Origin: Anaerolineae bacterium
GTDB taxonomy: Bacteria; Chloroflexota; Anaerolineae; Aggregatilineales; Phototrophicaceae
NCBI GenBank assembly: GCA_022820665.1
Contig: JAJEFB010000004.1
Coordinates: 60,870-124,869 of the forward strand
DNA: 64,000 bases
Reading direction: 5' to 3'
In this document: piece after piece, positions 1,144-23,905 of the stretch
Layout of the letters: each line of letters starts with the position of its first letter
How positions within the stretch are numbered: position 1 is the first letter of the stretch
Made by a program: the position numbers and the translations under genes
The notes under the pieces: model-generated
Database searches by the model: none
Seen by the model: only the letters and a program-made list of their open reading frames with translations
Told to the model about the DNA's origin: nothing

Positions 1144-2292
<1,149 letters not shown>

Positions 2293-7096: not shown

Positions 7097-7100
7097 GCGG
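7047..7100. repeat. Direct repeat copy 1 (native 3-prime end of the permease gene)
   Basis: 54 nt matching 7494-7547 with 4 mismatches. Encodes ...AIWLIIGGRVLMRAE-stop. Confidence 0.9.
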
Positions 7101-7124
7101 AACGGAAGGCGCCTTAAAACCCGG

Positions 7125-7337
7125 TTATGAGCTTTGTATCGCAAACATGATTATTCCAACAATAACACCGGTCGCTATTGCTACCATGATGGCGACAATC
7201 ACGCCCAGAATCCACTTCAGATTATCCAGTTTCGTTTCGATGCGGACGAGTGTTGGGGCAATCTCGCTACGCTTCACATATTCTTCCGCGCGAGTCTCTA
7301 TCCTAGTCAGTCGGTCGTTCATCGTTGCTTCAGTCAT
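7125..7337 (-). CDS. Small coiled-coil plus C-terminal TM protein, 70 aa; architecture reminiscent of XhlA-type membrane proteins
   Basis: MTEATMNDRLTRIETRAEEYVKRSEIAPTLVRIETKLDNLKWILGVIVAIMVAIATGVIVGIIMFAIQSS. A TATAAT and an AAGG lie upstream on the minus strand. It sits inside the 447-bp segment bounded by the direct repeats. Confidence 0.5.
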   Translation of the reverse strand: MTEATMNDRLTRIETRAEEYVKRSEIAPTLVRIETKLDNLKWILGVIVAIMVAIATGVIVGIIMFAIQSS

Positions 7338-7493
7338 GGTCTACCTTGTGAGCCTCGTGTCTGCGAATTATGATATTGTACTCGCATTATATCGGAGATT
7401 ATGCGATTTGCCCATTTTACAGTCGTCGGAAAGAAAACAACTGAAGCGCGTCCCTTTTGCCGACAGGTCTTATTATCAGCCCTGCGATGAGCA

Positions 7494-7547
7494 GCGCGAG
7501 CTGGCTGATCATCGGCGGGCGCGTTCTGATGCGCGCGGAGTGAGCGG
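7494..7547. repeat. Direct repeat copy 2 (orphan 3-prime gene end)
   Basis: Reads SWLIIGGRVLMRAE-stop in frame. 3 of the 4 differences from copy 1 are synonymous third-position changes (cgg/cgc, gtg/gtt, cgg/cgc). Confidence 0.85.
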
Positions 7548-7677
7548 CTGATAGCTTTCGTTCATGTTCTCTTCCTCTTCAATCCGTGATGCTTGCGAGA
7601 GCAGAGAGTTAGCAACTCTGTGTGAGCGCGACGGTAAGATTCGCTGGTTATTTCCCGGGCGGTTTTCTAGGGAAATG

Positions 7678-7702
7678 GTAGGGGCGATCCGCCGGATCGC
7701 CC
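7678..7702. repeat. 25-nt palindromic REP-like element (GTAGGGGCG family)
   Basis: gtaggggcgatccgccggatcgccc. Same head and tail as copies at 39301, 50464, 52212 and 53967, with covarying inner arms. Confidence 0.7.
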
Positions 7703-7801
7703 AGACTTGTTAGGAATCGACTGCGAGCGGCTTTGCCCAGTGATGGGTTGACGCGCCATGTGTGAAATATCCTGATATTGGAAGGAACAAGGCGGTTCCA
7801 C

Positions 7802-8824
7802 ATGACCACGCACGCAAGACATTTGCAAAACAAGATCCTCGGATGCCTATACGGCCAGGCGCTGGGCGATGCCTTCGCCATGCCTTCGCAGGTCCACCCG
7901 GACGATACCGAGCGCAGCTTCGGCTGGCTCGATAGCTGGCAAGACGCGCCCGATGACCACATCGTGCACGCCGGCTTGCCCGCTGGCCGCATCACGGATG
8001 ATTCCGAGCAAGCTTTCTCCATCGCGGCTGCGGTGATTGAGGCTGGCGGCGTGACGCTGGACGCGGTCGTCCACGGATTGGTCAGTTGGTACGACCGCGT
8101 TGGCGGCGATGACTCGCCTTATGTCGGTCCCAGCACCCGGCGCGGCATCAACGCGTTGAAAGCCGGCGGAGATCCGCGTACGACCGGTCTCTGGGGCGAT
8201 ACCAACGGCGCGCCCATGCGCATTGCGCCAATCGGCTTGCTGTACCCGGGCGACATACTCGCCGCGGTCGCCGATGCTGTGATTGTCTGCATGCCCACGC
8301 ACTACACTCAGCCGGCGGTATCGGGCGCCTCTGCAGTGGCGGCGGCAGTGGCGGCGGCGATGCTTGACGGCATCACGTTAGAGGTGGTGCTTGATGCGGG
8401 CTGGAAAGGCGCGCAACTCGGCAGAGCGAAAGGGCGCCCGTGGTTCGGCTGCTTGGTGGATTTCAAGATTGATCAGGCGCTGGATATTGCCGCGAGCGGT
8501 GAGGACGACAGGACGCGCTTGCGTCGGCTCTTTGAAGAGGTGGGCACGACCTTAAACGTGCCGGAAACGGTTGGCGCGGCTTTTGGCCTGCTGGCGATGG
8601 GGAATGGCGATCCCAAGCGAACGGCGATTCTGGCCGCCAATCTGAGCGGCGACGCCGATACCATCGGCGCTATCGCCTGCGCCATGGCTGGCACCTACGC
8701 CGGCTTTGACGCGATTCCGGCCGCAGATGTCGCGGTGTTGGAAAATGACGACGTCTTCCGCAGCTATGATGTGCGCGGTATCGCCGCCGGGCTGGAAACG
8801 CTCATTCACAGATCATTCAGCTGA
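7802..8824 (+). CDS. ADP-ribosylglycohydrolase (ARH/DraG) family protein
   Basis: N-terminal GQALGDAFAMP and C-terminal GDADTIGAIACAMAGTYAG metal-site motifs. ATG 7802 is preferred over the track's TTG 7778. Confidence 0.85.
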   Translation: MTTHARHLQNKILGCLYGQALGDAFAMPSQVHPDDTERSFGWLDSWQDAPDDHIVHAGLPAGRITDDSEQAFSIAAAVIEAGGVTLDAVVHGLVSWYDRVGGDDSPYVGPSTRRGINALKAGGDPRTTGLWGDTNGAPMRIAPIGLLYPGDILAAVADAVIVCMPTHYTQPAVSGASAVAAAVAAAMLDGITLEVVLDAGWKGAQLGRAKGRPWFGCLVDFKIDQALDIAASGEDDRTRLRRLFEEVGTTLNVPETVGAAFGLLAMGNGDPKRTAILAANLSGDADTIGAIACAMAGTYAGFDAIPAADVAVLENDDVFRSYDVRGIAAGLETLIHRSFS

Positions 8825-9780
8825 TGACTAAACGGCTAATTACAGTTGGCGACCTGGTGGTCGATCTACTGCTGGATGTTCGGTTGCCCATCAGGGCTGA
8901 CGACCATCAAATGTCGCCGACGCTGCTGCTGGAACCCGGCGGCGCTTGCAGCACCATCCTGGCGGCGCGCAATCTGGGTTTGGATGTCGCCGCGCTGGGC
9001 GCCGTCGGCGCTGATTTCCAGGGACGGATGCTGCTCGATATTATGGCGGGAGCCGGCGTCGACACGTCGGCGCTGTTGGCGTCCGCGAGCAGTACCACGA
9101 CGACTGTAGTCGCCCTCGCGGATCAGGAAGGCGGCGGGCATGTTTTCCTGGGCAACTATGGCGAAGGACCCGACATCGCGCTGACGGACGCCGCCCGCGA
9201 ACAATTGCGGCGCGCGGATGTCGTCTTTGTCTCGGGTTACTCCCTGGTCGAAGAGCGGCTGCGTCCGCTTATCGACGGCGTTTTGGAGTTTGTCAAGGAC
9301 AGTCCGACGCGGCTGTACGTGGATGTGGGTCCATTTATGAGCCAGTTGACGCGCGCAATGGTGGAGCGCGTCCTGGGTTTGGCGGATGTCCTGCTGCTGA
9401 CCGAAGACGAGATTCCTTTTGTCAGCGATGGGGAAACCGGTATCAAAGCCTGCCGCCGCTTGCTCCAACGCTATCCGTCCCTTTTGATTGTGCTGAAGTT
9501 GGGCGAAATGGGCTGCCGCATTATGGCGCCCGAAATCGACTTGCGCTGCCCCGGCTTTCCGGTCGCGGTCATTGATACCATTGGCGCGGGCGACGTCTAT
9601 GCCGCGGCTTTCATTTGGGCGCGCGCCCAGGGATATGCGCTGGAGGATTGTGGTACTATTGCCAACGCCATGGGCGCCGCGAGCGTCACAAAAGCGGGCG
9701 CCGGTCGCGGGGCGCCGACCCGAAGCGAGGTACAGGCATTGTTGGATAAGCACAAGACAGGATTGCAACTCTCATGCTAA
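8824..9780 (+). CDS. PfkB-family carbohydrate/nucleoside kinase
   Basis: DTIGAGDVYAAAFI (the PfkB GAGD motif). Abuts the ARH gene. Confidence 0.85.
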   Translation: MTKRLITVGDLVVDLLLDVRLPIRADDHQMSPTLLLEPGGACSTILAARNLGLDVAALGAVGADFQGRMLLDIMAGAGVDTSALLASASSTTTTVVALADQEGGGHVFLGNYGEGPDIALTDAAREQLRRADVVFVSGYSLVEERLRPLIDGVLEFVKDSPTRLYVDVGPFMSQLTRAMVERVLGLADVLLLTEDEIPFVSDGETGIKACRRLLQRYPSLLIVLKLGEMGCRIMAPEIDLRCPGFPVAVIDTIGAGDVYAAAFIWARAQGYALEDCGTIANAMGAASVTKAGAGRGAPTRSEVQALLDKHKTGLQLSC

Positions 9781-10181
9781 AGACCGTAGTTTTTGATACG
9801 CCGCGCGGCGATGCCCTGGTTGATATCACAGCGCATGTGCAGCAGGTGATCGATGAAAGCGGCGTAGATGCCGGGCTCTGCGCTATCGTTGTTCCACATA
9901 CTACCGCTGGCATCACCGTCAATTCGGGACTTGATCCCGCCACGCCGAACGATATTCTGGCTGATCTCAAGCGGCTGGTGCCGACGCGGGTCGATTTCGA
10001 GCATCAGTACGATACGCCAGCCGATGCCGCCGGGCATATCAAAGCGACTTTGGTCGGGCATAGCGTGACGCTGGTGATCGAGGAGGGCAAATTGCTGCTC
10101 GGGCACTCGCAAAGCATCCTGTTCTACGAATTCGACGGGCCGCGCAAGCGTCGCGCCCAAGTCAAAATACTGGGAGGATAG
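9774..10181 (+). CDS. YjbQ/UPF0047 family protein (secondary thiamine-phosphate synthase-like)
   Basis: 135 aa, PHTTAGITVNS...GHIKATLVGHS pattern typical of UPF0047. 7-nt overlap with the kinase gene. Confidence 0.8.
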   Translation: MLKTVVFDTPRGDALVDITAHVQQVIDESGVDAGLCAIVVPHTTAGITVNSGLDPATPNDILADLKRLVPTRVDFEHQYDTPADAAGHIKATLVGHSVTLVIEEGKLLLGHSQSILFYEFDGPRKRRAQVKILGG

Positions 10182-10183
10182 CC

Positions 10184-11128
10184 ATGCCGCGCAAAATCAT
10201 CATTGATACCGACCCGGGCGTTGACGACACCATGGCGATCTTCTTCGCCTTGTGCTCGCCCGAGCTGGAAGTGATCGGCTTGACCACGATCTTCGGCAAT
10301 GTGCATACCGAGTTGGCGACCAAAAACGCGCTGCGCTTGCTGGAAATCGCCGGCCGGTCCGATATCCCGGTTGCCCATGGCGCCGATAACGCGCTGACCG
10401 GACCCTTCGAAGGTCCCGTTCCTTTTGTGCATGGCAGCGACGGGCAAGGCGATATCTTCCTGCCGGACCCGGCTGGCGCGCCGCTAGACATCAGCGCGGC
10501 GCAGTTTATCGTCGAGCAACTGCGCGCGCATCCCGGCGAGATCACGCTGGCGCCGGTTGGTCCCTTGACCAATATCGCGCTGGCGCTGCGCCTGGAGCCG
10601 CGCATCACCGAGTGGGTCGATCAGGTGGTGCTGATGGGCGGGAACGCGCTGGCGCCGGGCAATGCCAGCCCCGCCGGCGAAGCCAATATCCGCAACGATC
10701 CGGAAGCGGCCGATCTGGTATTCGGCGCCGATTGGCTCGTGACCATGGTGGGCTTGGACGTGACGCACAAGGTGCACATGAAGCCGGAAGACATCGCCGA
10801 ATACGAGAGACATGGCAATCCCATGTCCGACCATATCATCCGCATCCTGCCGCACTATCGCAACTACTTCGAATCAAGCTATCCGGCGGAGGGGATCTTC
10901 GTTCACGATTCCAGCGCCATCGCCTATATTCTCGATCCGTCGCTATTCGAGACCAAGCGCTGGGCGATCCGCGTCGGTACGCAGGGCTTGGGACGGGGCA
11001 AGACCTGGCCCGCCTTCGGCAAGCACATATTGCCGCCCTGGCAGAATCGGCCGCTGGTCAATGTCTGCGTCGACGTCGATGGTCCCCGCGTGGTGGCGCT
11101 GGAAGCCCAGCGCCTGCGGGACGCGTAA
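10184..11128 (+). CDS. Nucleoside hydrolase (IUNH family)
   Basis: MPRKIIIDTDPGVDDTMAIFFAL... with the DTDPGxDD motif. 314 aa. Confidence 0.9.
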   Translation: MPRKIIIDTDPGVDDTMAIFFALCSPELEVIGLTTIFGNVHTELATKNALRLLEIAGRSDIPVAHGADNALTGPFEGPVPFVHGSDGQGDIFLPDPAGAPLDISAAQFIVEQLRAHPGEITLAPVGPLTNIALALRLEPRITEWVDQVVLMGGNALAPGNASPAGEANIRNDPEAADLVFGADWLVTMVGLDVTHKVHMKPEDIAEYERHGNPMSDHIIRILPHYRNYFESSYPAEGIFVHDSSAIAYILDPSLFETKRWAIRVGTQGLGRGKTWPAFGKHILPPWQNRPLVNVCVDVDGPRVVALEAQRLRDA

Positions 11129-11139: not shown

Positions 11140-12183
11140 TCAGACTGGTATTGGGCGCGCCTGCCGCGCCACGGTCAACTCCCGCATGCGCTCGAAGACA
11201 TCCACGCCCAACTGGTCATAGATATGCAGCAGGTCGACCAGTACCCAGTTCTCACGGATCATTCCACGTTCGCAGCGCCAGAAATCCAGGCTGCGGCGCA
11301 GCAGCTTCTGCCCAGCCGGCGCGATGCCCAGCCAACCGTCGCCGACCAGCGTCGACTGACCGCCGGGCCAGGCAGTAAAACCGACATATTCATCGTCGCC
11401 GAACATGACGCCTTTCTCCAGGAAGGCGAAGCGATCAGGCATCGCTTTCAGGAAAGGCGTCTGATGCCAGTTTCGGAAGCCGGAGACGCGCCTCATGGAG
11501 CCGATGCCGGCCGGTCCATACCACATCATCTTGGGGTGCCAATGGCGATCCAGTTGCATTGCCTCGACGCCCTTGGGCGAGTTGCGCAGCGCTTTCAGCA
11601 TATCCATTACCAGTTGTACGCTGGCATCTGCTTTTGCCTGATCATAGGGCGCGCTGACAATACCGTCATTGGAAGCGGGACCGGGGATTGTCGCCCAATC
11701 CGGAGCCAAACTCGGCGTCAGCGGCCAGGCAGCGGCTTGCATCATCAGGGCGGGAATATCCCAGAGCGCCTGCATCTCTACAATCTCGCCGTCGACGAAG
11801 CGGAAGAATTCGTGATAGCGCATCGCCACCATATGCTGCGTCGGCGGAATATCCAGCCAGGGCTGTTCAAAGACGCCGACATAGTGCCCGCCGCAGCCGA
11901 CCCAGTCGCCGCTCCACTGGCCCGGAGAATGACCAGCCATTACAATGAAATCGCGCCGTTCCAGATCCGGAATGGCCTGAATCAGCGGCAGATAGGCGCG
12001 CGCGACTAATTCCGCGGGCCCATCGAGATCTTCGAAAGGAGAAGCGAGATGAACCTTGCAATCGCGAGCGAAGATTTCGTTCAATTGCTGTAGCAATTGC
12101 GCCGGCTCGATATCGTACAAGGCGGCGCGCAGCGCGTTGATGCGCTGCTTGTTAAGATTGTGAATGCTAAATGTAATGCTCAC
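11140..12183 (-). CDS. Fused double SnoaL/NTF2-like ('ester cyclase') protein, subfamily A (P1)
   Basis: 347 aa in two halves, each with SnoaL-like features (AIPDLERRD...; DFWRCERGMIRENWVLVDLLHIYDQLG). C-terminus similar to P3. Confidence 0.75.
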   Translation of the reverse strand: MSITFSIHNLNKQRINALRAALYDIEPAQLLQQLNEIFARDCKVHLASPFEDLDGPAELVARAYLPLIQAIPDLERRDFIVMAGHSPGQWSGDWVGCGGHYVGVFEQPWLDIPPTQHMVAMRYHEFFRFVDGEIVEMQALWDIPALMMQAAAWPLTPSLAPDWATIPGPASNDGIVSAPYDQAKADASVQLVMDMLKALRNSPKGVEAMQLDRHWHPKMMWYGPAGIGSMRRVSGFRNWHQTPFLKAMPDRFAFLEKGVMFGDDEYVGFTAWPGGQSTLVGDGWLGIAPAGQKLLRRSLDFWRCERGMIRENWVLVDLLHIYDQLGVDVFERMRELTVARQARPIPV

Positions 12184-12217
12184 CCCTAGTCCAATTCAAG
12201 CGCGCGCTGGACGGCGC

Positions 12218-13402
12218 TCAATCGCGAAAGATCTGCTGCATCACGGCGAATTCATTGAAGAGCATCCATTCCGCCGCGATCGCGCCGTCGACGATCCGGT
12301 GTTGGGAAATGCCCCACATTGTGATTTGCCGTCCGGTCGGCTGCCCGTAGATGCCATTGCCGCGATGCGAGCCGGCGATGCTCCAGCGCACTGCGGCCAG
12401 GTAGCCCTCGTCGTCATTGCCCATCCAGTAGATATCGTCGATTGTCAGCGCCAGATCGGGGAACATCGCCAGAATCGACAGGACATAGGACTGATAATCG
12501 CCGCGCCCGCTGAAAGCGCGCCCGGTCGAGCCTCTGAATTGCAGCGACTGATGGTAGGCGCGCCTGACATCGTTCAGCATGCGCCGGTTCCAGATGTTGT
12601 GGTAAGTGCGGCGAATGAACTCCTCGACATCGAATCCGTCGAATCCGCTGGCGCTGTTCGGCAGCAGGTAGGCCGGCTTGCCTTGTCCGGGCAGGCGCTC
12701 CCCTTCGCCGGCGACTTCACTGTCGGCTCCGCTTTCCATCTGGTTGCCGAACTCCCGCGCCATCTCGCGCAGGTCAAAACCCAGTTGATGAATCAAACTG
12801 GCGGTATCGTAGATCACCCATTCCTTGAAGATTTCGTTTTCTAAGGAAACACAATTGGCGATGCACCAAAGCAGCACTTTCTTGCCCGTCGGCGGTCCAT
12901 AGCGCGAGAAGCCGGTATTGTGCCCGCTGATGACCGTGCGGTGCGAGGTATGGAAGCCGCTGACATCGTCCCCCGCCCAGATGATCTCATCTGCGAACAA
13001 GCGGATATCGGGGAAGGCATTGATGGTGTGAACCGTGTCGGCGACGATCTTCTCGCTGCCGTATTGCAAGCCATAGTCGTCGTAAACGCGCGAGTTATGT
13101 CGATAGGTGTCGTAGATATAGCCGATGTCCTTTTCTTCCCAGATCCGGTGGGTGATGCGCACGATATAGTCGATGATGTCGACATAGGTATCTTCAAAGC
13201 CGCGCATGCTTTGCAGGCGCTCATTGCCCGGATTCAGCAGCAAATTGTCAGTACCGCCTTTGGCCGCCAGCGAGATTGAAAAGTCGGGCGGCATGAAGCG
13301 CACGTTGCTAGGACTAGCGGCGTCGTCCGGCGAGTTCTGGCTGGCGTTCGCTTTACGCTCGTCCGCTGGTGTTTGCTCATTGGCCATGGCTTGCCCTCTC
13401 AT
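12218..13402 (-). CDS. Fused double SnoaL/NTF2-like protein, subfamily B (P2)
   Basis: 394 aa. ITHRIWEEKDIGYIYD...AFPDIRLFADEIIW...EWVIYDTASLIHQLG, then a second repeat ending MFPDLALTIDDIYW...AEWMLFNEFAVMQQI. Paralogous to P5 (26261..27256). Confidence 0.75.
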   Translation of the reverse strand: MRGQAMANEQTPADERKANASQNSPDDAASPSNVRFMPPDFSISLAAKGGTDNLLLNPGNERLQSMRGFEDTYVDIIDYIVRITHRIWEEKDIGYIYDTYRHNSRVYDDYGLQYGSEKIVADTVHTINAFPDIRLFADEIIWAGDDVSGFHTSHRTVISGHNTGFSRYGPPTGKKVLLWCIANCVSLENEIFKEWVIYDTASLIHQLGFDLREMAREFGNQMESGADSEVAGEGERLPGQGKPAYLLPNSASGFDGFDVEEFIRRTYHNIWNRRMLNDVRRAYHQSLQFRGSTGRAFSGRGDYQSYVLSILAMFPDLALTIDDIYWMGNDDEGYLAAVRWSIAGSHRGNGIYGQPTGRQITMWGISQHRIVDGAIAAEWMLFNEFAVMQQIFRD

Positions 13403-14388
13403 AAACCATTTTCATTGCGATAGTCGCGGTAGCGCTCGAATACGTCAATGCCCATCTGCATGAACACGTCGATCATGTCAATATGGACCCAATTGCTGAT
13501 CAACAGATCGTCTTTTCGTTCCCAAAAGTCCATGATCCTCCAACGCAATGTCCGTCCCGTTGGCTCTTGACCGAGGAAAAAACCGTCATGAACCGCAACC
13601 AGGCTTGGCCAGCCGCTGGATACGGCGAAACGCCCCTCGGCATAGCGGGCATTGTGCGAGCCGCCCCAGGCTCCGCTCAATCCGCGCAAGAATTCGGTGT
13701 GAATTCGCTCCAGAAACTCTTGTAGACTGCGCGCCGTACCAACCCCGCTCGGGCTATTCCAGGTCATCTTCTCATCCCAATAGAGTGACATCGGCTGATC
13801 TTTGCGTACCAGCCCAAATAGCATCGACTCGATCAAGCGCAGGGTCTGCCGCGTTTCGGCAGGGTCTTGCACCGTGTTCAAGATACCGCTGCCGAATTTC
13901 ACAGGCGGTCGCAAGCCTTCCAAGGCTGGCGCATCCCAACCCAGATGGTAACCGCCTTGCTGCATAACATCCAGCAGGTCGAGCAGGAAATAAGTCTTGA
14001 CGATTTTGCCCGTTTCCAGCGACATAATTTCGCCGTAACGTATCTGCGTTTTTTCGCCAGTCGCGACGATGCCCAGCCAATCCTCTTCAAATGTGCCTTC
14101 GAGGTAGCCGGTCGCGCTCACCCAATTCTGATCTCGAAAAGAGCCGGCCAGGAGCACGTCGCAGCGGCGACGCAGATCCGGAAAGGATTGACGCAGGGGA
14201 ATCCACAATTTTTCGATTAGGCCATCTACGCCGTGAATGTCATTGAACGGTTGTGGTCCGTGCCATGCTATATCATTGTGGGTATAGGCTCTGACGATTT
14301 CCGGAAGTTTTTCCGCGCTTGATGCGTCAAGCTCGTTCCAATACTGCCGAATGGTCTCTCGATTGCGCTGGGCATTATGAACTGACAA
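13399..14388 (-). CDS. Fused double SnoaL/NTF2-like protein, subfamily A (P3)
   Basis: 329 aa. SFPDLRRRCDVLLAG... and MDFWERKDDLLISNWVHIDMIDVFMQMG. ATGA-type overlap with P2. Confidence 0.75.
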   Translation of the reverse strand: MSVHNAQRNRETIRQYWNELDASSAEKLPEIVRAYTHNDIAWHGPQPFNDIHGVDGLIEKLWIPLRQSFPDLRRRCDVLLAGSFRDQNWVSATGYLEGTFEEDWLGIVATGEKTQIRYGEIMSLETGKIVKTYFLLDLLDVMQQGGYHLGWDAPALEGLRPPVKFGSGILNTVQDPAETRQTLRLIESMLFGLVRKDQPMSLYWDEKMTWNSPSGVGTARSLQEFLERIHTEFLRGLSGAWGGSHNARYAEGRFAVSSGWPSLVAVHDGFFLGQEPTGRTLRWRIMDFWERKDDLLISNWVHIDMIDVFMQMGIDVFERYRDYRNENGL

Positions 14389-14467
14389 GTTATTTCTCCT
14401 TTTACTTAGATACCGACAGTCGGCTTTTCACTTGTATGCGTCTATCCGGCGCGCCCAGCTTGCGCAG

Positions 14468-15472
14468 TTAGCCCTTCACGGCGCCGGCCGCCAAGCCTCT
14501 CACTAGATGTTTTTGAAAGAACAAGATGACCACAATGATGGGAATGGTCGCCGATACCGAAGCGGCGGCCGCCAAAGTCAATTGCGCTGGATCTTCCGCG
14601 CCGGTGTAGCGTGAGATGGCAACGGGCAAGGTCCAATTGGTCTGCGTCAGCACCCGCACCAGCAAGAATTCATTATAAGCCAGCAGAAGGGTGAAGAGCG
14701 CGGTGGAAATAATGCCGGGCCAAGCGACCGGGACGATAACATTCAGGAATGAGGTCAGTCGATTTGCGCCATCGACCATGGCCGCTTCTTCCAGGTCCTT
14801 TGGCACTTCCATAAAGAAGCTGCGCAGCATCCAGATCGTGAAGGGCTGGTTGACCGCTACCAGCGCGATGACCAACAAAAGGTGTGAATCAAGCAGATTG
14901 AGCAGCGAGCCGATCCAAAAGTAAGGCAGTACAAAAGCCAAGCGCGGCAGCGCGCGGAATGCCAAGGCAGAGATCAAAATGAGCACAGCCGCCATACCGG
15001 CATATCGCGCCAGCGCGTAGCCCGCCAGGCAGCCGATGCTGATCGAGATGAGAATCGTGAAAACTGTGACGATAATCGTATTGATGAAATAACTATAAAA
15101 CTTCTGCATATAGACGAGTTGCGGTATCGCCCAGAGCAGCGCGCCGTAACCGACGAGGCAACCGATGTAGATCCATGCCGGGTTGACGGGGATGTAGCGG
15201 GCAAAGAGCATCAAACAGGTTAGGATCAAAGCCGCCGCCAGAATGAGGTAGCCGACCGCTGAACCGGCATCAGGCAGCGAGCGAATCCAGACGTCTTGGT
15301 AATTGGCCCAGGTCGGTTGGAAGATTAAGATCGGCGCGCGTGAGAAGGCGTCTTTGAAGGTCTTGAAGGACTGCAGCGCTGTCCAAAAGAACGGAACCAA
15401 ACTATATACAGCGAAAAGCAACAACACCGTATGAATGAATACCCGGCCAGCGGGTCTTCTAACTTTATCCAT
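14468..15472 (-). CDS. CUT1-type sugar ABC permease (MalG-like) with an extra two-helix insert
   Basis: EAA loop EEAAMVDGANRLTSFLNVIVPVAWPG. 334 aa, with about 60 extra residues carrying two hydrophobic helices between NYQDVW and FYSYFINT. Confidence 0.85.
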   Translation of the reverse strand: MDKVRRPAGRVFIHTVLLLFAVYSLVPFFWTALQSFKTFKDAFSRAPILIFQPTWANYQDVWIRSLPDAGSAVGYLILAAALILTCLMLFARYIPVNPAWIYIGCLVGYGALLWAIPQLVYMQKFYSYFINTIIVTVFTILISISIGCLAGYALARYAGMAAVLILISALAFRALPRLAFVLPYFWIGSLLNLLDSHLLLVIALVAVNQPFTIWMLRSFFMEVPKDLEEAAMVDGANRLTSFLNVIVPVAWPGIISTALFTLLLAYNEFLLVRVLTQTNWTLPVAISRYTGAEDPAQLTLAAAASVSATIPIIVVILFFQKHLVRGLAAGAVKG

Positions 15473-15475
15473 GAA

Positions 15476-16339
15476 TCAGCGGTCCGCGATCTGTTCTTTG
15501 TACATCAGACGCAGGAAGGGCACCAGCACAACCATGATGCCGATGACAGTGAGGATCGCCATCGCATTCGCTTTGCCCAGCCGCTGCACCTGCATGGCAG
15601 TGAGGAACGTATAGGTCATCACGGTATCGGCTTTGAATTGCGGGTTCAATTCGGATAGAACAAAGATGCTGTCGAAGACGCGATAAGCGTCCATAATTGA
15701 GAATAACAAGATGAAAACTGTCAAGGAACTGACATAAGGGATGACGATGTGGCGGATCTTTTGCAGGCGGCTTGCGCCGTCAATCGACGCGGCTTCGATC
15801 ATCTCCGCCGGCAATGTCTGTAAACCGGCGAAATAGACGACGATGGTGAAGGGCGTAACATACCAGATGCCGAAAATGATGATCAAAGTTTTGACCGAGG
15901 TCTCGTTGACGCGATAGCGGCTGCCCGTCAATTGCTGATATACCCAAGTCAGCAAACCGGAAGGTTCCCAGAGCTGCTTGAACATGATCGTGCCGATGAC
16001 CGGCACAATGATGAAAGGCAGCAGGAAGATCGACAGATAAACGCCGCGGACCAAGCCCGAGACTTGGTCGAGGAAGAGTGCGATGATGAAACCGATAACG
16101 ACCCAGCTCGGCACGACGATTGCCGTGTAAAGCGCGGTGAAGCTGAAGGAACGCCAGAAACGGGGATCTTCCAGTATTTCTATGAAATTGCGCAAGCCGA
16201 CGAAGTCCGGCTCGGTGATATTGCGGAAGGTCATGTACTGCGTACTTAGCCAGAGCGCCATCATCAATGGCACGACCATGAGGGCAAGCATCACGACGAT
16301 GCTTGGCGAGGCGAAAGCGAAGAAAGTATTACGCTTCAC
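15476..16339 (-). CDS. CUT1-type sugar ABC permease (MalF-like)
   Basis: EAASIDGASRLQKIRHIVIP EAA motif. GTG start giving MKRNTFFAF... Confidence 0.85.
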   Translation of the reverse strand: MKRNTFFAFASPSIVVMLALMVVPLMMALWLSTQYMTFRNITEPDFVGLRNFIEILEDPRFWRSFSFTALYTAIVVPSWVVIGFIIALFLDQVSGLVRGVYLSIFLLPFIIVPVIGTIMFKQLWEPSGLLTWVYQQLTGSRYRVNETSVKTLIIIFGIWYVTPFTIVVYFAGLQTLPAEMIEAASIDGASRLQKIRHIVIPYVSSLTVFILLFSIMDAYRVFDSIFVLSELNPQFKADTVMTYTFLTAMQVQRLGKANAMAILTVIGIMVVLVPFLRLMYKEQIADR

Positions 16340-16460
16340 TGTTGATTCCGTTGCTTCTTCTCACCGAAACGTTTGTGCAGGGGCGACCTGGCAAGCCGCT
16401 CGAAATGGTATTGGCGGCGGCTGTGGGCGACGCACAGCGTCGCCCCTTTTTATGTAAACC

Positions 16461-16507
16461 GCGTCGCTCATGCGACGAGAAGGCTTGCTATTTTGCGTGA
16501 GCGCGAC
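16461..16507. repeat. Palindromic intergenic repeat (CGCTCATG...GACGAGAAGGCTT...TGAGCGCG family)
   Basis: By hand alignment, 36 of 47 positions match 47165-47210. Lies between the binding-protein and permease genes. Confidence 0.6.
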
Positions 16508-16567
16508 ATTCCTGTGACCTTTTCGCCGGTTACGCGCCGTGCGGCTCTGTCGCGTAGAGCGCGGACT

Positions 16568-17860
16568 TTAGCCCTCAATATAACCCTGAGCGGTCGCTTC
16601 GGTGATGTAGTCGGCCGCGGCGGCTTCCAGCGCTTCTTCGGCGGTCATGTCGCCGGGCCATACCAGCGGCAAATACTGCTCCAGCTTGGCGATGGCAATG
16701 CTGACGGCTGGGTTCACCGCATAGTTGCCGATGCCGTTGCCGATTGTCTCGTTGGCAGCCGGCAGATAGGGTCCGCCAAATTCGCCAGCCGAATTGCGCG
16801 TGGTTGAGCCGACGGCTGCGGCGGCTTGCTGGCTGGCGGCGTCGACCGTTTCCATGATGACCTGGAAGATTAGATCCGGGTCATTGGTGGTGTTGGTCGG
16901 GATGAAGTAGAAATCGAGCCAGGCAGAACCGGCGCGCGGACCGCCTTCAACGACGCTCGGTGCTGGCGCATAGCCAATAACATCGCCCAGGTCCGTGCGC
17001 TCGGGGTCGGCCATTGTGGCGGCGCGGCTAGCCCAGATTTTGGTCAGTGGCAAACCACCGTTGCCCATGGCGACCTGGATTTCGTTCAAGCCGTAGGCTA
17101 CGCCATCCGCACCGACACAGCGATTGACCGTCTCGATCATCAGATCGACAGCGGCCAGACCCTCGTCGCTATTGAAGGCGGGCATATTGTCGTCATCAAG
17201 GTAATCGCCGCCCATGGCGCGCAGCAGCATGAAGAACTCCAGTTCCCAGGCGCGGGCGCGCGACACGTCCATCGCATAGATCAATTCCCAGTCCGGGTTG
17301 CCCAAACCGACTTCGTCGCACCAATTGTGCAGGTCGTCATAGGTATCGGGGACTTCCCATCCGTTCTCTTCGAAAACATCCGCGCGGTAGACCAGGTGCA
17401 GCGTATTGCCCACCATGGGGATACCGTAGATATTGCCGTTGTAGCTGCCGCTATCCCAATAGCCGGGCGGGATATCGTCCAGGTCGTACTCGTCGCGATA
17501 TTTATCGATCAGGTCGTTGAGCGGCATGACCCAGCCGGGCGCGCCCCACTCGGCGATCTGACCGTTGGCGCCGTGCAGGATGTCATAGGGCGAATCCCCA
17601 CCGGCCGAAAGCGCCAGGCGCACTTGCTCTTGCAGCGATGAGGAATCCAGCAGGTTGGTGTTGATGGTCAGGTTGTCAACTTCGCTGCAGGCTTCCATTT
17701 CGGCAGCGTAGAACTCGGTGATGGCGAAGGGCCAACTGATCATCTCGATTTCGACAGGTTCCATCGGAGAATCGATATTGCAGGGGTCTCCGCTCTGAGC
17801 GAATGCCGGGATCGAGACGAACAATCCCAACAACAGCACTACAGATATTAACTTAGGCAT
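16568..17860 (-). CDS. Extracellular solute-binding protein family 1 (sugar-type)
   Basis: Start moved to ATG 17860 (MPKLISVVLLLGLFVSIPAFAQSG), which has AAGGAG 8 nt upstream. The track start at 17935 adds 25 unlikely residues. Confidence 0.85.
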   Translation of the reverse strand: MPKLISVVLLLGLFVSIPAFAQSGDPCNIDSPMEPVEIEMISWPFAITEFYAAEMEACSEVDNLTINTNLLDSSSLQEQVRLALSAGGDSPYDILHGANGQIAEWGAPGWVMPLNDLIDKYRDEYDLDDIPPGYWDSGSYNGNIYGIPMVGNTLHLVYRADVFEENGWEVPDTYDDLHNWCDEVGLGNPDWELIYAMDVSRARAWELEFFMLLRAMGGDYLDDDNMPAFNSDEGLAAVDLMIETVNRCVGADGVAYGLNEIQVAMGNGGLPLTKIWASRAATMADPERTDLGDVIGYAPAPSVVEGGPRAGSAWLDFYFIPTNTTNDPDLIFQVIMETVDAASQQAAAAVGSTTRNSAGEFGGPYLPAANETIGNGIGNYAVNPAVSIAIAKLEQYLPLVWPGDMTAEEALEAAAADYITEATAQGYIEG

Positions 17861-18004
17861 AACAGACTCCTTTTTTGATAGACTTCGAACATCCGTACAT
17901 TTCAAAAAGGCGCGCTTTCGGTGAGCGATCGCCACCTTTTCCTCATTCCGTTCACGCCGAGCTTAGGGCGCGTTTTGACACATTGCTATCGGCTTAGGCT
18001 CACA

Positions 18005-19045
18005 TTAAATTTTTGGATTCGGACCGGTGGATCCACGTACGATGAGTTCCACCGGGAGCGTATGTTGAATCGGCGCCCGCGGCTGTTCTTCGATCAGTTG
18101 CAGCAAACTCTCTACAGCCAGCCTGCCCATATCCGACACCGCCTGCCCAACGGTAGTTAAAGCCGGCTCGGTCACGCCAGAGGCCAAGATGCCATCGTAA
18201 CCGGCGATGGACAGATCTTGCGGAATGCGGATACTTTGTTCTTTTGCCAGCGAAAGGGCATTGATTGCCATGGGGTCGGTGAAAAACAGAATAGCTGTCG
18301 GTGGCGCGGGTTGAGACAGAAAGGTCCTGAACGACCGCGTATGGTAATGCGGATCAGTGGATTTTGCCGATATGACCAGCGACGGGTCATAAGCAATACC
18401 TGCGTCTCTCAACGCGCCCGCGTATCCCGCGTGTCTGTCGCCGTCGGTCTCGTAGACTTCCGGCAGCCTCTCGAAGCCAATGCGCCTGTGTCCCAAGGAA
18501 ATCAGGTGCTGCGTCAAGGCTCTCGCTCCCTGTACGTGATCGGCAGCCACAAAAGATATTCCGGCGTTTGAAAAGCGTCGCGGCAGGAAGACATGCGGCA
18601 TCTGCTCGTCCGCCATCAGCTGCGAGAGCGCCACCGTCTCGCTCGAGCCGGGCGGCCAGGCTACGATGATGCCGTCAACCTCGCGCGAGCGGCACAGGCT
18701 TTTGATCCTCTGCTCGTTGCCCGCCATAGAGGTATACAGGATCAAGTTATATTCGGCGTCTTCGGCAACCGCTGCCATGCCAGGAATGAGCTCGGCGAGG
18801 AAATCGGCGACTCTTTGAAAAGGATAATTGACGACCAGACCAAGTTTCTCCGTGCGCTGCCGGCGCAGGTTGCGCGCAGCTGCCGAAGGCTGATAGCCCA
18901 ATTCGTCCACTGCGCGCAAAACTCGCTCTCTGGTAGCCGACGAGACGTCGCTACGGCCATTTAAGGCTTTGGAAACGGTTGAGCGCGATAGGCTCAGCTC
19001 ATTTGACAGATCTTTGATCGTGACGGGCACCTTGCGTATCTCCAA
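18005..19045 (-). CDS. LacI/GalR-family transcriptional regulator
   Basis: N-terminal HTH VTIKDLSNELSLSRSTVSKALNG followed by a periplasmic-binding-fold body. Confidence 0.9.
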   Translation of the reverse strand: MEIRKVPVTIKDLSNELSLSRSTVSKALNGRSDVSSATRERVLRAVDELGYQPSAAARNLRRQRTEKLGLVVNYPFQRVADFLAELIPGMAAVAEDAEYNLILYTSMAGNEQRIKSLCRSREVDGIIVAWPPGSSETVALSQLMADEQMPHVFLPRRFSNAGISFVAADHVQGARALTQHLISLGHRRIGFERLPEVYETDGDRHAGYAGALRDAGIAYDPSLVISAKSTDPHYHTRSFRTFLSQPAPPTAILFFTDPMAINALSLAKEQSIRIPQDLSIAGYDGILASGVTEPALTTVGQAVSDMGRLAVESLLQLIEEQPRAPIQHTLPVELIVRGSTGPNPKI

Positions 19046-19077: not shown

Positions 19078-19097
19078 TTACGAAATCGATTTCGTAA
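19078..19097. promoter_or_regulatory. Perfect 20-bp palindrome, candidate LacI operator
   Basis: TTACGAAATCGATTTCGTAA, centred on CG as in LacI-family operators. Sits just downstream of the predicted -10 of the lacI-like gene. Confidence 0.45.
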
Positions 19098-19204: not shown

Positions 19205-19519
19205 CTATCGCTGCTCGGAAGCGATTTGCCGTAAACTGTTTTTGCTTGTATCGCGTTTGAGCAGATTCAAGATTATGGCGCGTAAGGTTGCCATGTTTTC
19301 GGAGCTTTCGCCGTCTCGGATGCGGGAATAATCCTCGCCGAAGGTGACATCCGGGATCCAGTGGTAGCTGGTTTCGATTGTCCAGTGTCGCCGCGTTGAC
19401 CTCAAGATCACTGCGGCAGAAGCCTTAAGGCTACTGATATAATAGGCATTCTGGCGTCGAATCTGCCCGTTATGACGGCGCTCTCGCTGGACCCGGATAA
19501 TGCTGCGTAGGTCAGCCAT
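19205..19519 (-). mobile_element. ISAs1-family transposase, C-terminal ~100 aa remnant (5-prime truncated)
   Basis: YYISSL...RRHWTIETSYHWIPDVTFGEDYSRIRDGESSENMATLRAIILNLLKRD matches the conserved DDE C-terminal block of ISAs1 (H-repeat) transposases. No N-terminal ~270 aa is present. Confidence 0.75.
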
Positions 19520-19836: not shown

Positions 19837-20331
19837 TCAGTCCGTCTCCACGCTGTCAAAGAACTCAGGCGGCTTGGAGCCGATGAATGCGAGTACCTTG
19901 TGGATGTCGTAACCCACTTGCTCCAGAAAGCCCAGGATGTCGATGAGCACCCAGTTCTCCGCCAGCTTATCCCCCTCGACGCGCCAGAAATCCATGTAGC
20001 GTAACTTGATTGGTTTTCCACTGGCGGGAATACCGAACCAGTCCCCGGTGTGGGTGGCATGTTGATATCCGTGTGCGGCGACATAGTCCCCTTCAGCGAT
20101 GCGGATCTCGTCGCGCGCCACTTTGTCGGGAATAGCATTGATGGCGGGCCTGCGCAACACCTCCTCGAACTCCTTGATACCGTGCAGGGTCCCGATACCC
20201 GCTGGACCGTACCAAGCCATGTCCTCCGTCCAAAACTCCTCCATAATACCGAGCACGCTCTTGTTGAGGGCAGTGTACAAGCGTGCGATCAGTTCTTTGT
20301 TCTTTTCTTCTTTGCTCATTTCTGTAGACAT
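19837..20331 (-). CDS. Single-domain SnoaL-like 'ester cyclase' (P4)
   Basis: 164 aa. ...GDYVAAHGYQHATHTGDWFGIPASGKPIKLRYMDFWRVEGDKLAENWVLIDILGFLEQVG. AAGGAG 9 nt upstream of the ATG. Confidence 0.8.
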   Translation of the reverse strand: MSTEMSKEEKNKELIARLYTALNKSVLGIMEEFWTEDMAWYGPAGIGTLHGIKEFEEVLRRPAINAIPDKVARDEIRIAEGDYVAAHGYQHATHTGDWFGIPASGKPIKLRYMDFWRVEGDKLAENWVLIDILGFLEQVGYDIHKVLAFIGSKPPEFFDSVETD

Positions 20332-20482: not shown

Positions 20483-21502
20483 TCAGCCCTTCACTGCCCC
20501 GGCCGACAAGCCCTTCACCAGTTGCTTCTGGAAGAAGAGTATCACTAAAACGATCGGGATGGTGCTGGACACGGCCGCTGCCGCTTGCATCGGGATCTGG
20601 CCCGGGATCTGTGCGCCGCCGATAAATTGGACCATCGCCAACGGCAGTGTCCACTTTGACTGCGTGAGTATTCTCACCAACAAGAACTCGTGGTAGGCCA
20701 GCAACAGCGTGAACAGCGCCGTCGAGAAAATGCCCGGCCACATGATCGGGGTGATCACTTTCAGGAAGGCCCCAAGTCGGGAGGCGCCGTCGATCATGGC
20801 TGCCTCCTCGATCTCCCGCGGGATATCCATGAAGAAGCTGCGCAACAGCCAGATCGTGAAGGGTTGGTTCACCGCCACCAGAGCGATTATCACCAGGAAG
20901 TAGGTGTCGTGCAAGCCACTCATCCTGCCCATCCAATAGAAGGGTAGTAAAAACGCCATCCTGGGCAGGGCTCGAAAAGCGAGCGCCACGAGCAACATTA
21001 CCACGCCAGACATCCCGGAATAGCGCGCCAGCGCATATCCAGAAAGACAACCAATGCTGACCGAGACCGCGACCTCCCCCACGCTCACGATCAGCGAATT
21101 CACAAAGTAGTCATAGAACTTTGCCGTATCCACTATCTTGGGAATGACCCAAATGATCGCGATCACAGCACCCAGGATACCGGCGGTGATGATGTTTCTC
21201 GGGATGGGCAGTCGTCCAGCAAAGACGCCTAGGAGCACCAGGACGACGACGCCCGTCAGTCCAAAAGCGAGTACTGCGACGTTATTGGGGGTCGAATCCA
21301 ACCAGAGACGGCCATAGTTGTCGATGGTAGGCCTGAAAATGAACAGCGGAACGCGTGCGGCCGCCTGCCGTTGCGTCTTGAACGACTGGAGCGTTATCCA
21401 GACGATGGGGACGACGCTCCACAGCAGGAACACTATCAGCGAAACGTAGATGACGAACCGGCCGATAGGATTGGTGACAGGCCGCATGTCAGCGCTCCTC
21501 AA
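20483..21502 (-). CDS. CUT1-type sugar ABC permease (MalG-like), paralog of 14468..15472
   Basis: EEAAMIDGASRLGAFLKVITPIMWPG. Same two-helix insert. The C-terminus ...FFQKQLVKGLSAGAVKG mirrors the paralog. Confidence 0.85.
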   Translation of the reverse strand: MRSADMRPVTNPIGRFVIYVSLIVFLLWSVVPIVWITLQSFKTQRQAAARVPLFIFRPTIDNYGRLWLDSTPNNVAVLAFGLTGVVVLVLLGVFAGRLPIPRNIITAGILGAVIAIIWVIPKIVDTAKFYDYFVNSLIVSVGEVAVSVSIGCLSGYALARYSGMSGVVMLLVALAFRALPRMAFLLPFYWMGRMSGLHDTYFLVIIALVAVNQPFTIWLLRSFFMDIPREIEEAAMIDGASRLGAFLKVITPIMWPGIFSTALFTLLLAYHEFLLVRILTQSKWTLPLAMVQFIGGAQIPGQIPMQAAAAVSSTIPIVLVILFFQKQLVKGLSAGAVKG

Positions 21503-22307
21503 TCTGCTCGCGGTAGGTCATAATGAGGAAGGGGATGACCACCACGAAGATCCCGATCATCGCCAGGATAGCCATCGCGCTCCCCTTGCCCAAGCGCTGC
21601 ACGGTTATCGCCACTCTGAAGTTGTAGGTCATGACGGTGTCAGCTTTGAATATCGGGTTCTGCTCAGTCAGGATGAAGACGCTGTCGAAGAGGCGAAAGA
21701 AATCCATTAGCGCAATCAGTGCCTCCAGCACGATCAATGACCTCAGGTGGGGAATAACCACATAGCGCAACTGCTGCAACCTGCTGGCGCCATCGATTGC
21801 CGAAGCGTCGACCAGCTCCCCGGGCAGCGTCTGTAAGCCAGCAAAAAAGATGACCAGGGCAAAAGGCGTGCTCGCCCAGATCGTGTGCAGTATGATAAGC
21901 GCCTTCACAGAGTACTCTGTGAAGATAAATCGCTGCCCAATGATCTCGCTGAAGAACCACGCGAACAAGCCGGTCGACTCGAACAATTGCCTGAACATGA
22001 GCGTCCCCACGACGGGCACCACGATCATGGGCATCAGCATCCCGGGCAGGAGCACGCTCCGCATCCGACCCGATGTCTCGTCGAGTAGCAGCGCCACGAC
22101 CAAACCGATTATGATATGAGCCGGGACACTGATCGAGGCGATCAACAACGTGAACCGGAGCGCCTGCCAAAAGCGCGCATCGGAAAGCACTTCCTGGTAG
22201 TTTGCGAGCCCGACGAATTCCGGCGCGTCGAGCGTGCGAAACGTGATGAAGTTCAGACTCAGCCAGACCGCCATCACCAGGGGCACGGTCATAAGCGCGA
22301 TCATCAC
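21489..22307 (-). CDS. CUT1-type sugar ABC permease (MalF-like), paralog of 15476..16339; annotated from an internal GTG
   Basis: Homology to the paralog's N-terminus continues upstream in frame (IKRGTFFWFTAPSNI vs MKRNTFFAFASPSIV). The aligned start position is ATA (22352-22350), with GAGGA upstream. Confidence 0.8.
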   Translation of the reverse strand: MMIALMTVPLVMAVWLSLNFITFRTLDAPEFVGLANYQEVLSDARFWQALRFTLLIASISVPAHIIIGLVVALLLDETSGRMRSVLLPGMLMPMIVVPVVGTLMFRQLFESTGLFAWFFSEIIGQRFIFTEYSVKALIILHTIWASTPFALVIFFAGLQTLPGELVDASAIDGASRLQQLRYVVIPHLRSLIVLEALIALMDFFRLFDSVFILTEQNPIFKADTVMTYNFRVAITVQRLGKGSAMAILAMIGIFVVVIPFLIMTYREQIEER

Positions 22308-22450
22308 GATGTTGCTAGGAGCCGTAAACCAGAAGAACGTTCCTCGTTTTATGGTCTCTTCCTCTTCTTCACGCCTTGGTCTGGTTCAGAAGGGGCAGGT
22401 CGCGCCCAGTTAGTTCGCTCCAGCGAGCGCGACCTTCATCATTGTGTTGA

Positions 22451-23904: not shown

Positions 23905-23905
23905 G

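Follow-up and report, generated by a model that had tools for sequence, protein, structure and literature searches.

SnoaL-like proteins, which share the NTF2 fold, are routinely labelled "ester cyclase" or "polyketide cyclase" and are taken for enzymes of secondary metabolism. This study concerns three of them, P1, P2 and P3, each consisting of two fused SnoaL-like halves, whose genes form the distal part of an operon headed by a LacI-family repressor gene and a sugar-type (CUT1-type) ATP-binding cassette (ABC) importer. The operon lies on the minus strand, at 11140-19045, of a 64,000-nucleotide (nt) stretch of DNA from an Anaerolineae bacterium (Chloroflexota; contig JAJEFB010000004.1, positions 60,870-124,869), which is called the window here and supplies all coordinates below. 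This pairing of importer and SnoaL genes is found in five phyla or more and is probably the sign of a breakdown pathway that has yet to be described; thousands of the proteins labelled in this way appear to belong to a regulated nutrient-uptake module common to Chloroflexota, Actinomycetota, Deinococcota, Acidobacteriota and Rhizobiaceae.

Among the described proteins of this fold, SnoaL and AknH (the nogalonic and aklanonic acid methyl ester cyclases), SnoaL2, AclR, IdmH and ChaU show the same barrel as each half of the fused proteins (Foldseek TM score of about 0.75-0.83). They are single-domain, oligomeric proteins of about 140 amino acids (aa) that act on hydrophobic aromatic polyketides and are encoded in biosynthetic clusters, whereas P1-P3, at 330-390 aa, are fused, are encoded in a LacI/ABC-importer operon without a polyketide synthase (PKS) and show marginal sequence similarity to that group. 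An earlier interpretation of the window, here called the sequence-only reading, had regarded SnoaL domains as normally single, which overlooks that fused double NTF2-fold enzymes are already known. The polyether epoxide hydrolases/cyclases Lsd19 and MonBI/MonBII, which were the top Foldseek matches of full-length P2 (E 2.6e-9), have two NTF2-fold catalytic domains fused or paired, as in P2, and they are to our knowledge the only well-known natural case of this kind. However, their domain arrangement differs from that of P2 (TM score of 0.27-0.41 and root-mean-square deviation of 15-16 A, with an inter-domain geometry that is moderately confident in the P2 model), the identity is 10-12%, and Lsd19 and MonB are biosynthetic enzymes from polyether PKS clusters.

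Concerning the chemistry of the fold, NTF2-fold enzymes carry out enolisation, dehydration, aldol/retro-aldol reactions, epoxide opening and amide hydrolysis. Scytalone dehydratase, ketosteroid isomerase (KSI), the 7-alpha-dehydratase BaiE and limonene-1,2-epoxide hydrolase (LEH) are examples in which the dehydration of beta-hydroxy ketones, isomerisation and epoxide opening proceed without a cofactor; their substrates are hydrophobic and they have no specific sequence relation to P1-P3, and any parallel with them would be one of mechanism. A small, polar, nitrogenous substrate is handled by AtzH (DUF3225), the NTF2-fold 1,3-dicarboxyurea amidohydrolase of cyanuric acid catabolism (PMC6219798), which, unlike P1-P3, belongs to another Pfam family, is single-domain and is without such a transporter linkage.

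By position and function, P1-P3 can be likened to the mutarotases/pyranases RbsD, FucU and RhaM, small cofactor-free proteins encoded inside sugar-transporter operons; these have unrelated folds and occur as one copy per operon, whereas the present systems hold three to seven paralogues. The transport genes resemble those of the CUT1 polyol and disaccharide importers SmoEFGK and MalEFGK in combining an SBP_bac_1 binding protein, two BPD_transp_1 permeases, LacI and a palindromic operator with a central CG, but the present operon lacks any glycoside hydrolase, kinase or dehydrogenase cargo. It also differs in that no ABC ATPase gene was found in the operon or elsewhere in the 64-kb window; the MalK/MsiK-type ATPase is presumably a shared one, with its gene in another part of the genome.

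Neither the fold nor the Pfam family is new, and fused NTF2 domains as such have precedents. The literature searched gave no description of this SnoaL family or of its importer linkage, the matches to "ester cyclase" being to Mg-protoporphyrin cyclase, and this agrees with the earlier statement that no described pathway with duplicated SnoaL copies beside a CUT1 importer was known. As far as we found, three things are undescribed, namely the cross-phylum, operator-linked association of fused SnoaL proteins with CUT1 importers, the split into a resident core protein P2 and transporter-coupled partners, and the implication that many "ester cyclases" are catabolic.

Gene layout and domains of the fused SnoaL proteins

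Open reading frames (ORFs) and Pfam matches bore out the gene order lacI, binding protein, two permeases, P3, P2 and P1, and the proposed architecture holds, in which a LacI-headed family-1 importer is followed by a distal cargo of three genes for fused double-SnoaL proteins. All seven genes lie on the same strand, the last five spaced by 3-79 nt, and are predicted to be co-transcribed. The first gene encodes the LacI-family repressor (18005-19045; Pfam LacI helix-turn-helix and Peripla_BP_1/Peripla_BP_3), for which GTG 19030 is a possible alternative start; its NCBIfam matches to RbsR, CytR and PurR were all under the cut-off. It is followed by SBP1, a family-1 extracellular solute-binding protein (16568-17935; Pfam SBP_bac_1/SBP_bac_8), which most likely starts at M26 (17860), as judged from the signal peptide MPKLISVVLLLGLFVSIPAFA predicted to open there and from the resulting length of 430 aa, as in homologues. 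Permease 1 (MalF/UgpA-like, 15476-16339) and, 3 nt away, permease 2 (MalG/UgpE-like, 14468-15472) both match Pfam BPD_transp_1. The earlier label "sugar-type" is appropriate to these CUT1-type protein families, whereas a sugar as the ligand would be conjecture from the weak similarity of SBP1 to its nearest solved relatives (5iai, 4rya (sorbitol) and MalE3), which bind polyols or disaccharides and match at E about 1e-12.

The SnoaL genes begin with P3 (13399-14388, 329 aa), whose start codon is TTG with an AGGAG Shine-Dalgarno sequence 7 nt upstream. P2 (12218-13402) is an ORF of 394 aa; its true start is probably the second ATG at 13387, giving 389 aa, since this ATG is preceded by a GAGAGGG Shine-Dalgarno-like motif, the homologues have 383-389 aa and the exact public gene call also begins there. 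The ATGA overlap between P3 and P2 reported earlier exists at the ORF level, whereas the starts of homologues and of the public call would place the two genes 11 nt apart; the gap of 34 nt reported between P2 and P1 is correct. P1 (11140-12183, 347 aa), the last gene of the operon, is convergent with a nucleoside hydrolase gene. P1, P2 and P3 are all without a signal peptide. A generic promoter and terminator scan gave counts not above the shuffled expectation.

The presence of two SnoaL-like halves in each of P1, P2 and P3 was confirmed by profile search at 66-94 bits. Pfam SnoaL (PF07366; gathering cut-off, 28.4 bits) matched two stretches in each of P1 (78 bits), P2 (93.5 bits) and P3 (66.2 bits), and it also matched P4 (81 bits) and P5 (62.7 bits), two further SnoaL proteins of the window; the SnoaL_2 model was matched as well. 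Each half of P1 and of P3 separately matched the single-domain P4 (E 1e-9 to 1e-25), and P5 was collinear with P2 over both halves. The two fusion subfamilies distinguished in the sequence-only reading are real by pairwise similarity and co-occur: P1 and P3 are 28.6% identical over 339 aa (E 1e-41) and P2 and P5 are 29.9% identical over 331 aa (E 1e-48), with only weak partial similarity between the P1/P3 and P2/P5 groups. In a hand alignment, the C-terminal halves of P1 and P3 appeared to have a distinct (L/M)DFW...(E/S)NWV motif in common with P4; P1, P3 and P4 are hereafter treated as one type and P2 and P5 as the other.

No NCBIfam model exceeded its cut-off for P1-P5, there being just weak TIGR02096 matches, and P1 and P2 obtained only marginal sequence matches in the PDB (E >= 1e-6); the best PDB sequence match of P4 was 8ysb (DynA1; E 1.6e-15). 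Neither these searches nor the literature yielded a characterised family that accounts for P1-P3. The AlphaFold2 model of P2 contains two alpha+beta NTF2-like barrels, at residues 71-201 and 254-386, with a core predicted local distance difference test (pLDDT) score of 70-90, whereas the N-terminal 70 residues and a 30-residue linker were modelled poorly. Single P2 domains compared by Foldseek with IdmH, SnoaL2, AclR, ChaU, TsrD, LEH, KSI and PhzA/B gave TM scores of 0.6-0.83, the matches of the barrels to IdmH, SnoaL2, AclR and 3kkg being at about 0.8.

In an alignment of 25 P2 sequences, the same number as was supplied to AlphaFold2, about 120 positions were invariant, with His, Asp, Glu, Arg, Cys and Asn frequent among them; the invariant residues include His80, Glu84/85, His120, His146/149, Cys175/179, Glu189 and Glu373. 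The conserved motifs include THRIWEEKD, HTSHR and CIANC and an EW motif in both halves, and the conservation pattern of P1 resembles that of P2. Invariance at so many polar positions in P2 points to an enzyme whose ligand is hydrophilic rather than a polyketide.

Operator conservation, distribution and recurrent partners

A perfect 20-bp palindrome with a central CG, TTACGAAATCGATTTCGTAA, lies at 19078-19097, about 35-55 nt upstream of the lacI start, and is a candidate LacI operator; it is unique in the window, against 0.02 copies expected. Its 14-bp core, CGAAATCGATTTCG, was searched with at most one mismatch in a set of 85 related loci (1.61 Mb, labelled L001-L085) and occurred 37 times in 31 of them, against 0.26 expected, nearly all copies sitting 16-70 nt upstream of a LacI orthologue. 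In L003, the core stands ahead of four clustered double-SnoaL genes; this cluster and the LacI-importer-P2 operon of L002 are unlinked parts of one genome. The core is further found upstream of the P2-like gene in L004 and of the binding-protein gene in L074. As the core stands ahead of both importer and SnoaL genes, these data give regulon-level evidence for one common repressor. The conservation of this putative operator is the strongest computational support for reading the genes as a LacI-headed operon.

Sequence search found 2,598 relatives of P2 and 5,083 of P1; among the best 120 of each, the identity is 66% or more, and the named ones are "ester cyclase" of Chloroflexota. An exhaustive search gave about 208 clusters (50% identity) matching P2 at E <= 1e-30, and those of the P2 type that were listed have lengths of mostly 320-400 aa, indicating that the fused architecture represents an established but unstudied family. 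Orthologues of P2 occur in Chloroflexota, Actinomycetota, Deinococcota, Acidobacteriota and Pseudomonadota; their identity is 60-95%, and it is at least 60% across phyla. A genome scan with one genome per species yielded 335 loci encoding P2 relatives, of which the best 80 (60-94% identity) were analysed. Most of these are from Anaerolineae, and they also cover Arthrobacter crusticola, Nakamurella, Nostocoides, Solirubrobacterales, Trueperaceae, an Acidobacteria metagenome-assembled genome (MAG), Herpetosiphonaceae and Sphingomonadaceae. Going by MAG labels, many of the Anaerolineae that carry P2 may come from sponge or coral holobionts. P3 orthologues, 64-95% identical, occupy the equivalent position in about 20 species.

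Neighbours were counted by tblastn across these 80 species-level loci. A full importer within 6 kb of P2 and on the same strand was present at 31 loci, a LacI gene at 37 and a further SnoaL paralogue at 49, and at about 29 loci P2 had no importer, LacI gene or SnoaL paralogue nearby; P2 is the resident core gene. Genes of the P1/P3/P4 type stood beside P2 at 29 of the 31 loci with an importer and at 9 of the 49 without one, whereas extra copies of the P2/P5 type were not associated with the importer (p 0.45). The loci with a full importer beside P2 include some from Acidobacteriota, Actinomycetota and Herpetosiphonaceae, and the co-occurrence pattern of P1/P3/P4-type genes recurs in Acidobacteriota, Actinomycetota and several orders of Chloroflexota. 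The linkage of binding protein, permease and SnoaL genes recurs across phyla, together with the conserved operator. In L044, L058 and L061, for example, the order is P2-like gene, solute-binding protein gene, two permease genes, P2 and a P3-like gene, and in L002/L036 and L045 the operon consists of LacI, importer and P2 only.

The sequence-only reading had found no glycoside hydrolase, kinase or dehydrogenase in the operon, which is true of this operon, but in relatives an oxidoreductase and an alpha/beta hydrolase are encoded directly upstream of lacI. In L006, L008, L009, L012 and L048, the order is GFO_IDH_MocA oxidoreductase, unk274, lacI and importer, whereas in the window an 8.7-kb block, present elsewhere only in the closest relatives L001 and L005, parts lacI from unk274 (27865-28689, minus strand) and the GFO_IDH_MocA gene (Pfam; 28724-30112, minus strand, probable start M54). 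Therefore, the absence of a hydrolase and a dehydrogenase from the operon is a local rearrangement and not a property of the system. The unk274 gene lies between P3 and P2 in L050 and L056 and directly before P2 in importer-less genomes. Its product is an alpha/beta hydrolase of 274 aa without a Pfam match, resembling poly(aspartic acid) hydrolase-1 (PDB; E 1e-6) and also polyhydroxybutyrate-depolymerase-like esterases.

In distant phyla, the recurrent neighbours of P2 are HisD-like proteins that pass the hisD domain cut-off, SDRs, HpcH/HpaI-type aldolases and a DAO protein of the monomeric sarcosine-oxidase type, assigned by NCBIfam to N-methyl-L-tryptophan oxidase (497 bits against a cut-off of 257). 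Also found there are MetE-like and URO-D-like proteins, DUF1537 acid-sugar kinases, M20 peptidases, a C-N hydrolase, a beta-lactamase-fold hydrolase, cupins and a glutamine-synthetase-like protein. Genes for DAO and an Asp/Glu racemase lie directly upstream of the four-SnoaL cluster of L003. These partner families are absent from the window, with the exception of a glutamine-synthetase-like gene, and we know of no pathway that this mixture of polyol/sugar-acid and amine/methyl partners would match.

A cultured carrier was reached through a megablast search of plasmids, which gave short matches only and led to a locus of Ensifer adhaerens Corn53. Genes for a 422-aa P2-like protein, a solute-binding protein, two permeases, a MalK-type ATPase (domains ABC_tran and OB_MalK), a HisD-like protein, an SDR, LacI and a bicupin follow one another there, and the neighbours include an FGGY kinase with a GlpA-like flavoprotein pair.

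Possible function of the operon

The reading we favour, with a probability of about one in two, is that of a substrate-inducible catabolic operon whose SnoaL proteins perform cofactor-free acid/base steps on an imported carbohydrate-like compound. The LacI-family repressor, bound to the palindrome upstream of its own gene, would keep the seven-gene unit off until an effector arrives. The CUT1-type importer, made up of a secreted binding protein, the two permeases and an ATPase from elsewhere, would then take up a small, hydrophilic compound of the polyol, cyclitol or glycoside type, or a conjugate thereof. In the cytoplasm, the pseudo-dimeric SnoaL/NTF2-fold enzymes would process it by general acid/base (enol/enolate-type) steps, for which ring opening, isomerisation, dehydration/elimination (the dehydration being of oxidised, keto intermediates) and C-O or C-N cleavage are the likeliest candidates; these reaction types are taken from established NTF2-fold chemistry, and the choice among them is conjectural. 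P2 would be the core enzyme, and the P1/P3/P4-type proteins would be coupled to the transporter, turning the imported form into what P2 or later enzymes can use. The later enzymes may be the GFO-type oxidoreductase and the alpha/beta hydrolase here, and the HisD-like protein, SDR and aldolase in other phyla.

Several observations weigh against this model. The structural model of P2 is moderately confident overall (pLDDT, 67.8; predicted template modelling score, 0.69), and that of P1 is poor (pLDDT, 50.3) and confident in the N-terminal half only. In a hand alignment of P2 to the SnoaL sequence, the canonical catalytic Asp is seemingly absent: Gln105, His107, His119 and Asp121 of SnoaL presumably correspond to Cys175, Ala177, Glu189 and Val191 in the N-terminal half and to Gly359, Ser361, Glu373 and Met375 in the C-terminal half, so that an invariant Glu would take the position of His119 in both. 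The occurrence of P2 without an importer in about 29 of 80 loci means that its substrate need not enter by this importer, and the statistics that tie P1/P3/P4-type genes to the presence of an importer (odds ratio 64, p 1e-11) are uncorrected for phylogeny.

Two further points concern the transcript and the partners. The SBP1 gene is followed by a gap of 228 nt to permease 1 that contains a stable, GC-rich stem-loop (16425-16445, minus strand; RNA fold -25 kcal/mol, z = -2.9). As the coding strand has no downstream U-tract, this hairpin is probably mRNA-stabilising or attenuating rather than a terminator, and it may be comparable to the stabilising stem-loops common after binding-protein genes. 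The heterogeneous partners in other phyla carry a hint that the compound is a conjugate, either methylated or with an amine, and not a plain sugar.

If that hint is followed, the imported compound would be a nitrogen-linked conjugate and the SnoaL proteins would carry out C-N chemistry (hydrolysis or rearrangement of an imine, enaminone or amide); an Amadori- or opine-like secondary amine, an N- or O-methylated polyol or cyclitol, and a mycosporine-like amino acid are speculative candidates. PhzA/B are NTF2-fold enzymes with C-N-type chemistry. The neighbours that fit are the DAO protein past the N-methyl-L-tryptophan oxidase cut-off, the HisD-like amino-alcohol dehydrogenases past the hisD cut-off, and the MetE-like, URO-D-like, M20 dipeptidase-like, C-N hydrolase, beta-lactamase-fold hydrolase and glutamine-synthetase-like proteins, along with the DAO and Asp/Glu racemase genes upstream of the L003 SnoaL cluster and the likeness of unk274 to a poly(aspartic acid) hydrolase; AtzH provides a precedent as an NTF2-fold amidohydrolase (PMC6219798). 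However, the window holds none of these partners except the glutamine-synthetase-like gene, 43 kb off, its regulators LacI and GntR/FCD are of types that typically answer to sugars and sugar acids, and the nearest solved binding proteins take polyols or disaccharides. We therefore consider a nitrogen-linked substrate unlikely.

The scarcity of enzymes in the operon admits another explanation, in which the SnoaL proteins have an accessory role as anomerases or tautomerases. They would be functional analogues of RbsD, FucU and RhaM and would do no more than speed up the interconversion of ring, anomer or keto-enol forms of the imported sugar, while the catabolic enzymes are encoded elsewhere. 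The operon indeed holds no other enzyme, the P1/P3/P4-type genes co-vary tightly with the importer, P4 is the sole non-transport gene of a second importer operon, and the NTF2 fold is suited to cofactor-free acid/base catalysis. This explanation is nevertheless rather improbable in view of the three to seven paralogues per locus, far above known mutarotase systems, the retention of P2 without a transporter in many genomes, and the cross-phylum identity of at least 60% with about 120 invariant positions, which is unusually strong for a dispensable rate enhancer.

It is very improbable that P1-P3 are not enzymes at all, being instead cytoplasmic proteins that bind or sequester a ligand or act in regulation, or else the parts of an obligate P1-P2-P3 hetero-oligomer. 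NTF2-fold proteins are often non-catalytic (PMC6219798), the two subfamilies co-occur, and the conserved, poorly modelled segment 32-70 of P2 could serve as a docking arm. On the other hand, the invariant residues are polar and of catalytic type, P2 is found alone or with changing partner sets, and tandem arrays of paralogues look like substrate diversification among enzymes. The sequence-only reading had suggested a multi-step or hetero-oligomeric function; an obligate hetero-oligomer is unsupported by the distribution, with P2 alone in about 29 of 80 species, and is further disfavoured by the operons consisting of LacI, importer and P2 only (L002/L036 and L045).

A role as polyketide cyclases or hydroxylases of secondary metabolism, with fortuitous importer adjacency, was rejected as next to impossible because, despite the Pfam SnoaL/SnoaL_2 matches and the polyketide tailoring enzymes among the structural neighbours, no PKS or tailoring genes were found in the window or in the 85 related loci, the linkage of importer, LacI and operator is conserved across phyla, and the similarity to characterised cyclases is marginal (E >= 1e-6).

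To return to the favoured catabolic operon, a broader proposal can be made only tentatively and with some doubt, namely that the P2 family and the P1/P3/P4-type proteins constitute a new catabolic class, which replaces glycoside hydrolases, kinases and dehydrogenases in the first transporter-coupled steps of a horizontally spread pathway. If this were true, the substrate would be an abundant, unrecognised hydrophilic metabolite of marine-holobiont or soil-crust origin, such as a polyol/cyclitol conjugate or a methylated or amine-linked sugar derivative, and the multi-paralogue arrays would handle stereochemical or substituent variants of the compound class. Knowledge of the ligand would mend a widespread mis-annotation, could reveal new cofactor-free chemistry on polar substrates and could draw attention to a metabolite that is exchanged in holobionts and in soils. 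With a conserved operator and two cultured carriers, Ensifer adhaerens Corn53 and Arthrobacter crusticola SLN-3, the question is amenable to direct tests.

The 8.7-kb block and other neighbouring genes

The 8.7-kb block upstream of lacI contains P5, gntR, ilvE, a miniature inverted-repeat transposable element (MITE)-like element, a second importer, P4 and a transposase remnant. P4 (19837-20331, minus strand, 164 aa) is the last gene of the operon of the second family-1 importer, which is paralogous to the first (20483-23758, minus strand; SBP2 at 22451-23758 and permeases at 21489-22307 and 20483-21502); no LacI-type palindrome was found upstream of SBP2. On the plus strand, the GntR/FCD regulator gene (25426-26184) is followed by P5 (26261-27256). 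In Ca. Leptofilum (L029 and L038), the SBP2-type importer carries P2, in the order P4-SBP2-permease-P2-P4, and the ilvE-gntR-P5 block adjoins this SBP2/P2 operon. The ilvE gene of the window exceeds the cut-off of the housekeeping ilvE equivalog model and is probably unrelated, and it was rejected on that ground as an indication of amine chemistry.

Possible traces of rearrangement were observed within this block. Inspected by eye, a 104-aa ORF between P4 and lacI (19205-19519, minus strand) resembles what is left of the C-terminus of an ISAs1/H-repeat-type transposase, which fits a lineage-specific insertion of the block. The MITE-like element, of about 420 bp (23905-24330), lies in the divergent SBP2/ilvE intergenic region and ends in terminal inverted repeats of about 28 bp made of CTATCAG heptamers (CCTATCAGCTATCAGCTATCTGCTATCA ... 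TGATAGCAGATAGCAGATAGCTGATAGG). Upstream of SBP2, at 23826-23862, is a 3'-end remnant of a P4-like SnoaL gene, whose reverse complement matches the 3' end of P4 at 19840-19880; L029 and L038 have an intact P4 gene at that spot.

The rest of the window is an island for the catabolism of glycans and sugar acids. Its genes encode a sulfatase, two dehydratases of the enolase superfamily, two DHDPS-type aldolases, a BNR protein, an oligogalacturonate-lyase-like propeller, two GFO_IDH_MocA oxidoreductases, a xylose-isomerase-like TIM barrel and an Opp-type ABC system that has a LacI of its own. Between an enolase-superfamily gene and the pair of xylose-isomerase-like TIM barrel and GFO genes are two plus-strand ORFs of 254 aa (43276-44040) and 1037 aa (44044-47157) without a Pfam match at E <= 1e-5. 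The glutamine-synthetase-like gene (61230-62594, minus strand) lies 43 kb from the operon, and its product is 32-34% identical to the glutamine-synthetase-like neighbour of P2 in L044 and L079. Convergent with P1 is a cluster resembling riboside/nucleoside salvage (1144-11128, plus strand), which comprises a Bmp/PnrA-type ABC system, an ADP-ribosylglycohydrolase, a PfkB kinase, YjbQ (UPF0047) and an inosine-uridine nucleoside hydrolase; nearly all relatives within the Anaerolineae keep this cluster in synteny with P2, which is not so outside that clade.

Some observations were also made at the related loci. On the Ensifer plasmid AB (L085, 12853-19926), a region over which the PLSDB gene table holds no genes, a DAO+BFD flavoprotein, a Pyr_redox_2 protein and an FGGY kinase are encoded divergently from the P2-like/importer operon; the trio resembles a set of polyol kinase and polyol-phosphate dehydrogenase or an opine-oxidase-like set. 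The loci L064, L065, L072, L073 and L080 (Ca. Leptofilum, Promineifilaceae and Chloroflexia) show a striking expansion of paralogues, with as many as seven double-SnoaL genes in tandem and, in between, genes for HisD-like, C-N hydrolase, beta-lactamase-fold, DUF1537 kinase, Usp-domain and HpcH aldolase proteins. In L028, L053 and L059, three to four tandem paralogues of a 435-aa ADP-ribosylglycohydrolase-family protein are encoded upstream of P2, beside BNR and enolase-superfamily genes.

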